From a phage: DNA of 64,000 bases. The notes beneath the pieces were generated by a model that was not told where the DNA came from, ran no database searches, and was given only the letters and a program-made list of their open reading frames with translations. The position numbers and the translations under genes were made by a program. The stretch lies in assembly GCA_026110335.1 (NCBI GenBank), contig GCA_026110335.1_3055.1. One strand, written 5' to 3'. Shown here in pieces: positions 3,289 through 55,186 of this stretch. The stretch's first letter is position 1. Each line of letters begins with the position of its first letter.

Positions 3289-3319
3289 CATAAAGTCCTC
3301 ATGTTATGTCAGTAAGACT

Positions 3320-3349
3320 ACTGTAACACAACACGAGGGACTTGTAAAC
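3320..3349 (-). promoter_or_regulatory. candidate T4-type early promoter upstream of alc (weak -10)
   Basis: GTTTAC (rc of gtaaac at 3344-3349), 18-nt spacer, TACAGT-like -10. Confidence 0.3.
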
Positions 3350-13498: not shown

Positions 13499-13520
13499 CG
13501 TTTTGTGAAAAAATTTTAAA

Positions 13521-13548
13521 ATAAAAAAGGGGGACCTCTAGGGTCCCC
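13521..13548 (-). terminator. intrinsic terminator downstream of gene 32
   Basis: GGGGACC-tcta-GGGTCCCC hairpin followed by T-run on minus strand. Confidence 0.65.
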
Positions 13549-14578: not shown

Positions 14579-15232
14579 TTAATACTTGCAGGATTTCACA
14601 GTTTCAATGAAAACACTTTTGGCTTTCTGTGAATCAATATTTAAAATTTTTCTATAAGCCTTTAACTTTATAGAATAATTATTCCAGACTAAATTATCAG
14701 TCTGTTCATCATGTTTATCAATTATATTTAAAAACGAATCAAGCAAGATAAACGTCTCAAACGAAATTATATTCGATTGAAGCAGTTTAAAAATATAACT
14801 TGATTGAACTTTTGGATTATACTCAAAGATTTCTTTAAAAGCAGAAACTTCAACTTTTTTACTAAAATAATAAATGTTGCGAATATCTTCTTCAAACTTA
14901 AATTTAATTTGCTTTAAGCGTCCGATATATTCACGATAAAACACAAGTGCATCAGCGTCAGAGATGTCACCAATCCAAGCATCCTGGTTAGCAACCAGAT
15001 TGCTTATAAAGATTAAAGCAAGTTCCTTTAATTTATATTTTTCTGATAACTTCTGGAAAAAATACTTATCCCTTCGCTTTTGATAAGCGGCATCAGACAC
15101 CCGCATGCACCAATTATACTTAATTACATCATACTTTCCATTCATATGTTGTTTTATCATTAAGTATAATTTATAAACTGATTTACCATCAATATATCTT
15201 TCACCACCAGCAGGCATGCGGAGTTTAATCAT
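14579..15232 (-). CDS. 59: gp59 helicase loader
   Basis: 217 aa; position between 33 and 32; length and sequence consistent with T4 gp59. Confidence 0.85.
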   Translation of the reverse strand: MIKLRMPAGGERYIDGKSVYKLYLMIKQHMNGKYDVIKYNWCMRVSDAAYQKRRDKYFFQKLSEKYKLKELALIFISNLVANQDAWIGDISDADALVFYREYIGRLKQIKFKFEEDIRNIYYFSKKVEVSAFKEIFEYNPKVQSSYIFKLLQSNIISFETFILLDSFLNIIDKHDEQTDNLVWNNYSIKLKAYRKILNIDSQKAKSVFIETVKSCKY

Positions 15233-30174: not shown

Positions 30175-30198
30175 CGTTTTGTGAAAAAAATTTTTGAA

Positions 30199-30228
30199 AT
30201 AAAAAAGGGAGAGCCTCGGCTCTCCCTA
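30199..30228 (-). terminator. intrinsic terminator
   Basis: GGGAGAGCC-tc-GGCTCTCCC hairpin followed by T-run on minus strand. Confidence 0.6.
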
Positions 30229-38287: not shown

Positions 38288-38317
38288 ATTATACCACATC
38301 CTTGTGGTAAAGTAAAC
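38288..38317 (-). promoter_or_regulatory. T4-type early promoter for rIIA.1-rIIA
   Basis: GTTTAC-N18-TATAAT on minus strand. Confidence 0.6.
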
Positions 38318-40134
38318 TACTGGCTCATCCATTCTTTACGAAGGTCAGCGTTATCTCCCATGAGCATTTCAAAAAGCTCTTTCCAATTCTCAGGAAGTTT
38401 AACAACATCATATACTGGATTTTGAATCATCTCACGATATTCAGATTTTTCCAAAGAGCCAAGTCCCTTAATATAACGGATGCTATGTTTAGGTAGAGCA
38501 TCTTTGGCACTCTCATATTCAGCGACTGTATAAAACCATTCTTGTTTTTTACCGACCTGAGCGATGATTACAGGAGTTTTGACAAAGCGAATTCGTCCTT
38601 GCTCAAACAATTCTGGCCAATTACTAAAAAATCCGAGCAGAGAAGGATAAATGCTTCCTAGACCATCGTGGTCAGCATCAGTCATAATAGCGATATTATG
38701 ATAATTCAAGTTTTCAGCTTTTTCACCAAGAACTAATCCAGTGATTGCGCAAATATCAAATAGTTCTTTGTTTTTAAGCATATCTGCATAAGACATACCC
38801 CAGCTGTTGAGAACTTTACCACGCAATGGATAACCACCGTGAAGTTCTTTATCACGAACATCAATAAGATAGCCGATAGCAGAATCACCCTCAGTCAAGA
38901 AAAGAGTAGTATCAGCATCTTTACCACAAAGATTCGCTTTAATATGTTTATGAACCTTAGCTTTAGAAGCCTTTTTAGCTGCTTTAGTTTCTGCTGCTTT
39001 TTCTGCCGCCAATTTACGAGCTAGTGCAGCTTCAATAATCGGCATCAAAATCGCTTCATTATTTAGAATAGCGCGTGAAATCTTTTTAGCATCAAGTTGA
39101 ATATGACTACGGATTTCACCAAATGGAGAAGTCAAACGCTCTTTAGTTTGAGAATCAAATCGCATGTTTTTCATATCACGAACAAACATAACGATAGTCA
39201 AACATTCTTTAACACGCGCTTTAGTTACATCAATTTTGAACTTGCGTTTGATTTGTGGAATAAGGTCTTCACAAATATCATCCATAACACAGTCAATGTG
39301 ATGGCCACCATTCTTAGTGTGAATGTTATTGACGTACGTCAACTGACGAAAACCATCCGGTGAACGACCAACCGCAATAGAACAATTTTCTTGTTCTTGA
39401 ACGATAGCATGTTCATCATACTGTCGTGCATATTTCTTAAAATTGCCCTGAACCTTTTTACCATTAAAGGTAAATTGAATATCAGGATAAACAACAGCAA
39501 GTGTCTGGAGACGATCTAGTGTAATGTCAAGATAAACTTGGGACAGCTCATTAGTTTCAAATGACATAAAATCAGGAATGAAAGTAACACGAGTTCCTTT
39601 CCATTTTCCAGGAATATCTTCCCATGATTTATTTTCCATGCCATTTGAACAACGAACTACAATATTATTTTGACCATCACCAGTTTCACCAACAAACATC
39701 ACAGAAAAAATGTTTGTCAAACTAGAACCAACACCATTCATACCGCCAGTGACGCGCTCTTTATCATCACCGAAGTTACCACCTGCTTTTGGAATAGTCC
39801 ATGCAGCAACAGGGCCAGGAATTTCTTCACCAGTAGGTGTTTTAACCATCGCTTGTGGAATACCACGACCGTTATCTTCAACTGTTACTTGATTGTTTTT
39901 AATAGTAACATTAATTTTATTTGCGAATTTAAACTTAGTACGAATACCTTCATCTACTGAGTTATCGATAATTTCATCAATAAGCTTAACAAGACCAGGT
40001 ACATACTGAACACTTTCCCATTTACCAAACAGAAAGCGCTCATGCATTTCATTAGCAGAAGAGCCAATATACATGCCGCTACGCTTTTTGATATGTTCAA
40101 TATCGCTCAGAATTTTAATTTCATTCTTAATCAT
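38317..40134 (-). CDS. 39: DNA topoisomerase II large (ATPase) subunit, fused 39+60 form
   Basis: 605 aa single ORF spanning GHKL ATPase and TOPRIM regions; no split or bypass element. Confidence 0.9.
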   Translation of the reverse strand: MIKNEIKILSDIEHIKKRSGMYIGSSANEMHERFLFGKWESVQYVPGLVKLIDEIIDNSVDEGIRTKFKFANKINVTIKNNQVTVEDNGRGIPQAMVKTPTGEEIPGPVAAWTIPKAGGNFGDDKERVTGGMNGVGSSLTNIFSVMFVGETGDGQNNIVVRCSNGMENKSWEDIPGKWKGTRVTFIPDFMSFETNELSQVYLDITLDRLQTLAVVYPDIQFTFNGKKVQGNFKKYARQYDEHAIVQEQENCSIAVGRSPDGFRQLTYVNNIHTKNGGHHIDCVMDDICEDLIPQIKRKFKIDVTKARVKECLTIVMFVRDMKNMRFDSQTKERLTSPFGEIRSHIQLDAKKISRAILNNEAILMPIIEAALARKLAAEKAAETKAAKKASKAKVHKHIKANLCGKDADTTLFLTEGDSAIGYLIDVRDKELHGGYPLRGKVLNSWGMSYADMLKNKELFDICAITGLVLGEKAENLNYHNIAIMTDADHDGLGSIYPSLLGFFSNWPELFEQGRIRFVKTPVIIAQVGKKQEWFYTVAEYESAKDALPKHSIRYIKGLGSLEKSEYREMIQNPVYDVVKLPENWKELFEMLMGDNADLRKEWMSQ

Positions 40135-40202
40135 CACTTATCCTCGTTTGGTTTCGGGAATATTATACTCCAATAATCATAAAGCTAAAGGCCCGAAGGC
40201 CT

Positions 40203-40644: not shown

Positions 40645-41064
40645 TTATTCCTTAAAGTGAGCTTTCAACATCTGATACAAGGACCATGCCTGTTCATTAT
40701 TTTCAATAATAACTTCCATGACAGGAAATTCGGCGAAATCTTCTATTTGTTCTTGCTCTTCCTGCTCTTGCTCTTCAGCTGCCTGATATGGATTTTCCAC
40801 TTCATCAAAGAACCCAGCTTCGTTAGTAGAGAGCCAGATAAAGTTTTCGTCAAGGATATCACCACCGGCACAACGTTTGAGCACACCTATGGATGTCATA
40901 ATTTTAGTAGGACGCCCAAGATAATCAGCATCTAAAATTTTAAAAGGCTCCATACCTAAACGCCGCGCATAGATTCCGTTATCAGTATGGTCTTTAATAA
41001 AAGACTCTTGAGCTTGTTTATTTTTAAATTGATACCATTTATTAACTTCAAATTTAATAGCCAT
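40645..41064 (-). CDS. hypothetical protein (139 aa) with acidic EQEQEEQEQ stretch
   Basis: ORF track; position near goF of T4 but not verified. Confidence 0.45.
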
Positions 41065-41282
41065 TAATAAATTTCCTTCCAGTAAGTTGTACCGTCTTCA
41101 GTGATTTCACGGAATACACCATAAATCGGTTGTTTATCACCGACTTTCTCATACACATAAACAGAAGTCAAGTGAGTAAACTTGCTAGTATGTTCCTTTT
41201 GAACTACTACCAAATTTGGATCAAATAATACATCTTCAAATTCATCATTAGTGCAATTCTGAACAATTTTACGTTTCATCAT
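41064..41282 (-). CDS. hypothetical protein (72 aa)
   Basis: ORF track; position near cef of T4 but not verified. Confidence 0.4.
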
Positions 41283-41380
41283 AATTTCCTCATTAATTGA
41301 ACATTGGAGCGATGCGTTTCAGAAGAGTATCAGCGCACCTTTAACGAATTATTCATTTTATTCTTCAAGTTGTTTTCTGT

Positions 41381-41423
41381 ATCAGTAGTTGATATTGATA
41401 TAGTACCATAATCAACTACTGAT
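41381..41423. repeat. 13-bp perfect inverted repeat (ATCAGTAGTTGAT ... ATCAACTACTGAT) with 17-nt spacer
   Basis: Read directly from sequence; spacer contains a TACTAT -10-like element. Confidence 0.6.
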
Positions 41424-41452
41424 GTATATAGTTTTATGAAAAATTTTAAACT

Positions 41453-41950
41453 TTATGCACAGCGAGCTTTGCTATAGTGTTTAATCCAACTTTCAGGAAT
41501 GACTTTGTATGTTCCTAAAAATACCGCGTTGTACAACTTAACGCCATCTTCTACCCATTGATCGGTAATGTATGCACACATAGCACGAGTACGATGTTTT
41601 TGAACAACCCCTTCCTCATCTTCGGTAAATTCGAATTCATAAGGAGCAATGAACTTAATAGCCTGACCGAGTTTCCACTTAAAGTCTACACCTACATGCG
41701 AAGTATCAATCGTTTCAATTTCTTTAGCGGGAACAGCTTTCAAAAACGCAGATTCAAGAAATTTCGCGCGAACATAACCAAACTGAGGTTTAGACTTTCC
41801 ATCTTTAGGAATGATACGCACTTTTACTTCAGAATCTTCATCTTTAACGCCGTGTTTAAGCTGAATGCTTACAATTTCGACCAATTTTCCTGCTGCTTTA
41901 GAGCGGGATTTATCAGATACACGAGCAATTTCACCAATATTAATAATCAT
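41453..41950 (-). CDS. motB: MotB-like protein
   Basis: 165 aa; position between dexA and cef/goF region; paralogous to next ORF. Confidence 0.6.
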   Translation of the reverse strand: MIINIGEIARVSDKSRSKAAGKLVEIVSIQLKHGVKDEDSEVKVRIIPKDGKSKPQFGYVRAKFLESAFLKAVPAKEIETIDTSHVGVDFKWKLGQAIKFIAPYEFEFTEDEEGVVQKHRTRAMCAYITDQWVEDGVKLYNAVFLGTYKVIPESWIKHYSKARCA

Positions 41951-42026
41951 AGTTATCTCTCACTTGTTAAAAAGATTTTATACTCCACAGGACCATTATA
42001 CTCTGGTCCCAAGAGTTTGTAAACTA

Positions 42027-42572
42027 TTAATTCAAAATAGCTACCACCGCACTACGAGGTACTACACTAAAATCTCCTGCATGGACAACGTTCAGAAGCT
42101 CAACACCATCTTCAATCCACTGGTCTGTTACCCAACCACAGATAGGATTATCAAAAGGACGACGGATAGACACAGCAGCACACAACAGGTCTGTAGGGTC
42201 TTGTTCTTCAACTTCTTGGAACAGGATGAACTCATCTTCATAAACCAGGTTTTTCTTTATTTTGTTATTATCTAACCGGCGACCGTGGATGACGTAAGAT
42301 TTGTCAAACCACTCACTTTTGGCAAATTCTTCAACAATAAATTCGCCTTCGCCAAAAACATCAGTCAGAGTTTTATGACCAGAAATCAAGGCATTAGTTT
42401 TAATTTTAGGTTCAACCAGTTTGTAGGTTTTGCCGATTTCAATAGCGGTAGTCATAGTAGGTTCCTTAATTTCCAATGGTTTAACAGGGCATACATAAGT
42501 ACTTACAACGTCAAAATCAATCAGTTTAGCTGCCGGATTCGGTGTGTATTCAGGATTATAATTAAATTTCAT
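42027..42572 (-). CDS. MotB-like paralog (181 aa)
   Basis: C-terminal region shares motif (C..TDQW.EDGV.L.N.V..G...V.P) with 41453..41950. Confidence 0.5.
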   Translation of the reverse strand: MKFNYNPEYTPNPAAKLIDFDVVSTYVCPVKPLEIKEPTMTTAIEIGKTYKLVEPKIKTNALISGHKTLTDVFGEGEFIVEEFAKSEWFDKSYVIHGRRLDNNKIKKNLVYEDEFILFQEVEEQDPTDLLCAAVSIRRPFDNPICGWVTDQWIEDGVELLNVVHAGDFSVVPRSAVVAILN

Positions 42573-43087: not shown

Positions 43088-43114
43088 TTTATTATCCTCA
43101 GTAGCTATGGTGTT

Positions 43115-43144
43115 ATAATACCATAACTAACCGAGGAAGTAAAC
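43115..43144 (-). promoter_or_regulatory. T4-type early promoter
   Basis: GTTTAC-N18-TATTAT. Confidence 0.5.
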
Positions 43145-50219: not shown

Positions 50220-50232
50220 CATTTAAATGAAA

Positions 50233-50258
50233 AAAGGACTCCCGAAGGAGTCCTTGAA
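50233..50258 (-). terminator. intrinsic terminator downstream of soc
   Basis: AAGGACTCC-ttcg-GGAGTCCTT hairpin followed by T-run on minus strand. Confidence 0.6.
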
Positions 50259-50261
50259 TTA

Positions 50262-54637: not shown

Positions 54638-54668
54638 TTTCTTTTCTCCACGATTAGCTGATAGAATT

Positions 54669-54698
54669 ACTATAACACAACTCTATCAGCTTGTAAAC
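54669..54698 (-). promoter_or_regulatory. T4-type early promoter
   Basis: GTTTAC-N18-TATAGT. Confidence 0.55.
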
Positions 54699-55127: not shown

Positions 55128-55156
55128 AAAAATCTCCTCATTTAACCAACAAGACT

Positions 55157-55186
55157 ACTATACCATAGTCTTGTCAGCTTGTAAAC
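55157..55186 (-). promoter_or_regulatory. T4-type early promoter for dmd
   Basis: GTTTAC-N18-TATAGT. Confidence 0.55.

Follow-up and report, generated by a model that had tools for sequence, protein, structure and literature searches.

A palindrome between motB and cef of a Tequatrovirus as the likely -10-overlapping stem-loop of an early-promoter cassette

An exact inverted repeat surrounds a -10-like TACTAT at positions 41381-41423 of the phage contig GCA_026110335.1_3055.1 (assembly GCA_026110335.1), whose 64,000-nucleotide stretch is called the window here. We conclude that this palindrome is likely the stem-loop part of a T4-type early-promoter cassette, of the promoter-early stem-loop (PeSL) class and its -10-overlapping subclass, with a probable role at the boundary of read-through RNA. 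The window is a Tequatrovirus (T4/T2-like), 96-98% identical to SP21535, P922, RB32 and others, and the palindrome is intergenic, in the spacer between motB and cef. The original prediction, made from the letters alone, had described an exact 13-bp repeat with its arms 17 nt apart around TACTAT, upstream of ORF 41064..41282; the sequence bears this out, and the ORF is cef. What had been missed is that the whole element is, by its sequence, an early promoter (-35 TATACA, 17 nt, TGg TACTAT), and that stems at the -10 box are common in such cassettes.

On the plus strand, the element reads ATCAGTAGTTGAT-attgatatagtaccata-ATCAACTACTGAT, in which ATCAGTAGTTGAT (41381-41393) and ATCAACTACTGAT (41411-41423) are reverse complements at 13/13 positions and the minus strand of the 17-nt gap holds TACTAT at 41405..41400. 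A repeat search extended the stem inwards to 20-nt arms with 85% complementarity and a 3-nt loop, and RNAfold predicted helices of 13 and 5 bp, separated by a 2x2 internal loop and capped by the 3-nt loop CUA, with an energy of -20.2 kcal/mol that 0/200 shuffles reached (z = -6.0). The stem is A/U-rich, with 4/13 pairs being G-C. Perfect inverted repeats with arms of at least 13 nt and loops of 3-40 nt occurred twice in the window, compared to 0.1 expected per 64 kb in first-order Markov simulations. By itself the focal repeat is just mildly improbable, and we judged the palindrome to be real because of its promoter position and its conservation, not because of the repeat odds. The second such repeat (15112-15171; AATTATACTTAAT and ATTAAGTATAATT with a 34-nt loop) has TATAAT-like strings and sits in a coding region, the 217-aa ORF 14579-15232 on the minus strand, the N-terminus of which we take to match the T4 gene 59 helicase loader. 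Rfam covariance models gave no meaningful match in 40900-42100 at E <= 1.

Read along the minus strand, the motB stop codon (41455-41453) is followed by aagtttaaaatttttcataaaacta, TATACA, tcagtagttgattatgg, TACTAT, atcaat, ATCAACTACTGAT and acagaaaacaacttgaagaataaaATG. The A/T-rich, UP-like tract aagtttaaaatttttcataaaacta (41429..41452) begins directly after the stop codon, and its homologue in sister cassettes is the tract ttttttcacaaaac; the -35 hexamer TATACA (41423..41428) has one mismatch to the T4-type TTTACW. The 5ʹ arm, ATCAGTAGTTGAT on this strand (41411..41423), covers promoter positions -30 to -18, namely the final -35 base and most of the 17-nt spacer, while the 17 nt between the arms (41394..41410) contain the extended -10 TGg, the -10 hexamer and the discriminator. 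The 3ʹ arm, ATCAACTACTGAT on this strand (41381..41393), corresponds to the predicted +1 to +13 if transcription is assumed to start 7 nt after the -10 hexamer, and it lies in the start region TATCAACTAC(TGATACAG) that is common to cassette 30173. The -10 hexamer TACTAT (41400..41405), with TGg before it, stands at the top of the stem, where an inner 5-bp helix, UGGUA/UAUCA (41408-41404 with 41400-41396, one G.U pair), carries the CUA loop.

As a whole, TATACA-17-TGgTACTAT has a single mismatch to TTTACW-N14-TGN-TAYWAT, which falls in the -35 hexamer; both the -10 and its extension fit without a mismatch. TATACA as a -35 recurs in the orthologous promoter of Dhakavirus, which argues for constraint on it; the Mosigvirus promoter has TGTACA. 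Early promoters of T4 work straight after infection and need no synthesis of phage proteins. Compared with these promoters (Pe; UP / GTTTAC / TGn / TAtAAT, 'uber'; Hinton 2010, PMC2988021), the focal site shares the UP-like tract, the 17-nt spacer, the extended -10, a TACTAT -10, the conserved start region and the orientation with early genes, and differs in its -35, which is TATACA instead of (G)TTTAC(A/T). A promoter on the plus strand was rejected, as the palindrome presents TATAGT there but no usable -35 at 17 nt, and the promoter scan lists none.

The focal site is one of a family. The T4/PST early consensus was published as TTTACW-N17-TAYWAT (PMC4122927), and we used this PST/T4 consensus with the extended -10 TGn, that is TTTACW-N14-TGN-TAYWAT with at most one mismatch, as the cassette pattern. 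It matched 19 sites in the window, the focal one included, all on the minus strand, compared to 0.83 expected. The UP tract and start region of the focal site align with those of sister cassettes 61249, 33819, 30173 and 13497, in which the layout is ttttttcacaaaacgg TTTACA n17 (ending ..tgg) TACTAT acaac TATCAACTAC... The original prediction had placed the half-site in each early-promoter cassette. One arm is indeed the conserved cassette half-site, but TATCAACTAC is exact in only five minus-strand cassettes and varied in the rest.

Positions -32 to +14 of the 19 cassettes were then folded and compared with chimeras, in which the spacer of one cassette was joined to the -10/start region of another. 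The native cassettes had a mean of -10.3 kcal/mol and the chimeras one of -6.2 kcal/mol, a difference matched by 0/20000 permutations whether or not the focal site was included, and folds of -12 kcal/mol or below were found in 8/19 native cassettes versus 17/342 chimeras. Eight of the 19 cassettes have a stem of their own across the -10 box, which in the seven besides the focal one is formed by other sequences; the earlier claim that only here does the half-site become a palindrome therefore stands for the focal 13-mer and fails for the seven others. Among the 19, the focal stem ranks second in stability. The first belongs to cassette 43143 (43095-43143, minus strand), the promoter before motB.2, which is nested inside a hairpin of -23.1 kcal/mol whose 3ʹ arm pairs with ACUGAGGA, the Shine-Dalgarno (SD) region of motB.2; going by this fold, read-through RNA would mask the ribosome site and promoter-initiated RNA would not. 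Cassettes 54656-54697, 55141-55185 and 3304-3348 (minus strand), with TATAGT or TACAGT as -10 boxes, have stems across the box of -18.0, -18.9 and -14.1 kcal/mol, respectively, and the arms of cassette 54697 are perfect over 10 nt (AGCTGATAGA and TCTATCAGCT). Cassette 30173 has the focal 3ʹ arm unchanged and a spacer that is not complementary to it, and its fold reaches just -5.1 kcal/mol, indicating that the stem is not a property of the common start region. The excess of stems across cassettes was significant in the window and in Mosigvirus MM02 (p = 0.02).

Canonical intrinsic terminators, each a G/C stem with a T-run, stand directly upstream of the early promoters 50218, 30173 and 13497, at approximately 50220-50260 (GGACTCC..GGAGTCC), 30175-30215 (GGGAGAGCC..GGCTCTCCC) and 13500-13540 (GGGGACC..GGTCCCC) on the minus strand, and in each case the T-run itself makes up the A/T-rich tract upstream of the promoter. 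The embedded stems of these three promoters are weak. In a 16-cassette set, the complementary occurrence of terminators and embedded stems went in the expected direction in 3/3 and 6/6 cases, which are too few for significance; the pattern fits embedded stems substituting for upstream terminators, with small numbers.

The promoter upstream of cef was compared across other phages, namely six annotated ones belonging to other genera, and 39 IMG/VR loci. Nearly all of these promoters have a stem across the -10 box, the arm sequences being unrelated between lineages, and such a stem with different arms was found in at least eight other Tevenvirinae lineages. The arms are GGTCTAT / ATAGACC in Mosigvirus, TAGGGTA / TACCCTA in Dhakavirus, AGGGCTAT / ATAGCCCT in Karamvirus and relatives, AGGGTTAT / ATAACCCT in Gelderlandvirus, TTGGTAGGAG / CTCCTACCAA in phiR1-RT, and TGGTAGGAGC / GCTCCTACCA, TGGTAGAAGAC / GTCTTCTACCA and TTGGTGTAGGAG / CTCCTACACCAA in the loci L031, L038 and L026, respectively. 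Stem lengths range from 6 to 13 bp. The centre of symmetry lies at -9 in Tequatrovirus, at -11.5 in most other lineages and at -14 in the sister cassette 12772, and loop length varies as well. The downstream half of the Tequatrovirus cassette differs from that of the other genera and is common to paralogous cassettes; a new stem is present there in spite of this different partner sequence. In two distant T4-like contigs (L045 and L049, at about 640-700), the stem of the cef promoter, AAAGAGG / CCTCTTT, spans the -35 TTTACA and is followed by TTTTATTT, a T-run; it is terminator-like, and overlap with the -35 box is another published PeSL subclass.

Covariation was measured on an ungapped alignment of 29 distinct sequences, for a 13-pair helix centred between -12 and -11, with 500 shuffles and the helix slid along the alignment as controls. 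Standard pairs filled 70.8% of the cells (58.0% in shuffles and 32-43% in slid controls), 10 of the 13 pairs changed on both sides (6.3 and 5-8, respectively), and 60 cells showed double changes (17.6 and 11-24, respectively); on none of the three measures did any of the 500 shuffles match the observed value. RNAalifold independently predicted the core seven pairs of the helix, five of them with compensatory changes. Clean double substitutions separate close relatives, with C-G in Karamvirus becoming T-A in Gelderlandvirus and G-C in L026 becoming A-T in L040, and the position of a G-C pair in L031 is taken by G.U in L029. The promoter consensus already dictates the two innermost pairs, T-15/A-8 and R-16/T-7, so that weight is given to the outer pairs only. 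Judging by compensatory changes across Tevenvirinae lineages, the cef-promoter stem is under selection as a structure.

These results bear on two rival explanations. In the first, the spacer became complementary to the start region by chance or as a mutational by-product, maybe through quasi-palindrome templated mutation, and the stem is functionless. The odds of one perfect 13-nt inverted repeat somewhere in 64 kb are about 10%, the two innermost pairs come free from the promoter consensus, and the overall divergence of Tequatrovirus is so low that invariance within it is weak evidence. Chance would nevertheless have to account for a stem retained across lineages although close relatives differ by clean compensatory double substitutions, at least three in all, and the arms turned over completely between genera, for native cassettes beating chimeras in 20000/20000 permutations, and for the new Tequatrovirus stem with its different downstream cassette half; we regard this explanation as barely credible.

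In the second, an operator or protein-binding site as the original prediction had also offered, the 13-bp dyad is bound by a dimeric phage or host protein that represses the early promoter over its spacer and start site. We take MotB, whose gene adjoins the site, to be without sequence specificity. A protein bound to a dyad that spans -30 to +13 would block RNA polymerase, the shut-off of T4 early promoters is not fully explained (PMC2988021), and MotB, the product of the neighbouring gene, is reported to be a DNA-binding protein (PMC6070864). Against an operator, the arms are unrelated between genera at the orthologous promoter and only their complementarity is kept; arm length (6-13 nt), loop length and symmetry centre all vary, imperfect positions are of the G.U type, and the same 3ʹ arm stands in cassette 30173 without a partner. 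Arms that change while pairing is kept, in a geometry that varies, indicate a nucleic-acid stem and not a dimeric protein site, and an operator is accordingly very improbable.

Conservation in related genomes, which had been proposed as a check, was found. The T4 sequence between motB and cef is identical across the whole element, and T4 GenBank records annotate only coding sequences at this locus. Of 534 phage records, 343 match the window exactly over the 73 nt centred on the element, and another 153 depart from it at 1-3 bases. In 14 copies from IMG/VR and metagenomes, both arms are invariant, while the length of the T-run and several bases of the 5ʹ untranslated region vary. Five variant Tequatrovirus records contained two arm changes only, an A-to-G in the 5ʹ arm of SholemSchwarzbard and an A-to-G in the 3ʹ arm of Lv5cm. 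A match in an unrelated metagenome contig (RCNH01012728.1; L069 744-778) has TATACA-N17-TACTAT followed by a 12-nt palindrome, ATCAATATTGAT, and is probably the promoter of another phage.

The architecture of the focal site matches that of the PeSLs, which Arbiol et al. (2010; PMC2839356) defined in RB49 and phi1 as a strong sigma70-like early promoter that combines an A/T-rich tract with a stem-loop and precedes an SD sequence and a start codon. PeSLs recur through the hyperplastic regions and were sorted into five subclasses by the position of the stem; stems that overlap the -10 box make up one of the two most frequent subclasses (PMC2839356). The focal site likewise has a sigma70-type early promoter, an A/T-rich tract and an embedded stem-loop, is intergenic with an SD sequence and a start codon behind it, and belongs to a set of many copies on one strand. 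To the small-ORF indels of PeSLs the fit is loose: Tequatroviruses differ in whether they have an 89-aa ORF immediately past the cassette, but the deletion ends lie outside the cassette. As a positive control, the RB49 PeSL 131725 reads GGGGGTA-gTAATA-TACCCCC across its -10 box, in the same layout as the focal element, while RB49 PeSL211/210 has GGGGAT..ATCCCC between the boxes, then TATACT, and no true U-tract. The stems differ in kind, as those of RB49 and phi1 are short and G/C-rich (Gn-loop-Cn), whereas the focal one has 13 bp, is A/T-rich and reaches +13 of the transcribed region. The focal element is an ordinary member of a described class, unchanged in T4, and not a new element; what we add to the PeSL work is modest, namely -10-overlapping stems in T4-type phages and covariation at one orthologous promoter.

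Under the PeSL reading, host sigma70 RNA polymerase would use the UP tract, TATACA, the 17-nt spacer and TGgTACTAT to start at about 41393 on the minus strand, and the promoter would serve a vestigial leader ORF ahead of cef, goF, 39.2, 39.1 and gene 39. As the 5ʹ arm is within the promoter spacer, RNA started locally would have the 3ʹ arm only and an unfolded 5ʹ end, whereas RNA coming from motB and further upstream would have both arms and form a hairpin of about -20 kcal/mol approximately 30 nt past the motB stop codon. This hairpin would most likely mark the boundary of two transcription units, where it could attenuate or pause read-through, or could protect the 3ʹ end or mark processing of the upstream message. 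The stem of PeSLs was proposed to terminate or attenuate upstream transcription, and the PeSL211/210 stem, the one RB49 stem tested, cut lacZ expression about as much as rrnB T1 (PMC2839356). A role in 3ʹ-end protection or processing fits equally well. The RNA processing hairpin named in the original prediction thus agrees with the evidence and with the PeSL concept as far as the hairpin goes, and processing itself may be one of its effects. E. coli RNase III acts on RNA duplexes of about 20 bp, many of which are interrupted by an internal loop; the Tequatrovirus stem has 18 bp with a 2x2 internal loop, and its orthologues have just 6-13 bp.

Two other known systems resemble the site in part. 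In the T4 genes e, soc, 49 and I-TevI, a promoter lies inside a hairpin and the short transcript alone escapes folding (Uzan & Miller 2010, PMC3014915). As at the focal site, the promoter is within the 5ʹ part of the stem-loop, so that long transcripts fold and internal ones cannot, but in those genes the 3ʹ arm sequesters the SD sequence or the AUG and the internal promoter is late. At the focal site, the SD sequence is about 15 nt past the stem and unpaired, and direct translational masking is not predicted; cassette 43143, where the SD sequence of motB.2 is paired, follows the logic of these genes at an early promoter. Intrinsic terminators share with the focal element a stable, intergenic hairpin about 30 nt after a stop codon, and differ in that the focal stem is A/U-rich and without a U-tract; the canonical terminators of the window look quite different.

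Several points weigh against our reading. The focal element does not qualify as a canonical intrinsic terminator, as its A/U-rich stem is followed by ACAGAAAAC and not by a U-tract, and it was missing from the output of the terminator scan. Comeau et al. (2014; PMC4122927) put the stems of PST/T4 PeSLs just upstream of the promoter, and the -10-overlapping stem was described for RB49 and phi1, not for T4-type phages. The -35 TATACA of the predicted promoter is off-consensus; the searchable literature held no start site, 3ʹ end or reporter data for this promoter, and nothing retrievable on dyad symmetry in T4 early promoters. The stem excess was not significant in Karamvirus KMB17 (p = 0.38, with n = 6 cassettes only). 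Finally, two indicators of RNA gave a mixed result. In the window, the sense strands of the cassettes fold at -10.3 kcal/mol versus -7.3 kcal/mol for the antisense strands (Wilcoxon p = 0.002), with 8/8 strong stems in the same direction, which favours the sense strand, that is RNA or non-template DNA; this bias is absent in Mosigvirus MM02 and Karamvirus KMB17, and the 10 G.U versus 5 A.C pairs in the core helix of the orthologues do not discriminate between RNA and DNA.

Because the strand bias was not reproduced and the G.U/A.C count is indecisive, an effect in single-stranded DNA keeps a low probability. The element would then take part in cassette exchange, indel formation or promoter opening, either as a cruciform or by forming a hairpin in single-stranded intermediates of replication or recombination; we consider this unlikely. 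PeSLs do recombine with each other, giving indels and mini-circles, and one crossover was mapped in the loop of an RB49 stem-loop (PMC2839356). The downstream half of the focal cassette is common to paralogous cassettes (30173; EC.W5-4 match), as expected after exchange within a promoter, and the 89-aa ORF indel lies directly downstream. This ORF (L003 788-1057) is intact in ADUt, RB5 and SholemSchwarzbard, whereas T4 retains 11 of its codons and the window 8. The vestige in the window, MNNSLKVR (41330..41356, minus strand, ATG at 41356), is the first ORF behind the promoter, and its SD sequence is weakened to GAAG from the GGAG of T4. The deletion is internal and fuses one AAAA(T/C)T repeat to another with a change of frame, and its end-points in T4 and the window are at this microhomology inside the 89-aa ORF, not in the cassette or the palindrome. 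The recombination target suggested in the original prediction fits the evidence and the PeSL concept loosely and finds no deletion end within the palindrome. Moreover, homologous recombination between cassettes needs identity and not a stem, the compensatory changes would be left unexplained, the sense folds of the window are the more stable ones, and both arm variants (n = 2) can still pair as G.U on the sense strand but would be A.C mismatches on the other. A homing-endonuclease or recombinase site, the former also in the original prediction, was rejected. A homing-endonuclease target would be expected within a conserved gene that adjoins an endonuclease ORF and to come and go with that ORF, but the palindrome is non-coding, no gene of either kind stands close to it between motB and cef, and Pfam gave no match for the variable 89-aa ORF.

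The genes around the site are on the minus strand in T4 order, dexA, motB.2, motB.1, motB, cef, goF, 39.2, 39.1 and gene 39. Upstream of the promoter, motB (41453-41950, minus strand) encodes 165 aa, and its read-through RNA would include both arms; cef (41064-41282, minus strand; 72 aa) is the first intact gene downstream. Gene 39 (38317-40137, minus strand) is one 606-aa ORF for an unsplit topoisomerase large subunit, unlike the T4 arrangement of a shorter gene 39 with gene 60, and at this locus the window is presumably T2/T6-like rather than T4 proper.

A bolder version of our reading, in which the -10 stem is no passive relic of a terminator but a selected switch at the motB/cef boundary, kept subfamily-wide by compensatory evolution and in a new form in Tequatrovirus, and the two classes of cef-goF-39 messenger RNA differ in decay, processing or 3ʹ-end formation, is rather doubtful. 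If it were true, read-through RNA would have a folded 5ʹ region that promoter-initiated RNA lacks, and the 'promoter inside hairpin' logic would go from a few late genes to 8/19 early promoters, sometimes with masking of the SD sequence (43143). For phage biology at large little changes; the palindrome of the T4 motB-cef spacer is assigned to a described cassette class. About 40% of the early promoters of the window are nested inside a hairpin, so that read-through and local transcripts would differ in the structure of their 5ʹ or junction regions, and this nested arrangement could help to explain the separation of immediate-early and delayed-early expression. As sites of gene gain and loss, the cassettes are also relevant to the annotation and engineering of T4-like therapeutic phages.

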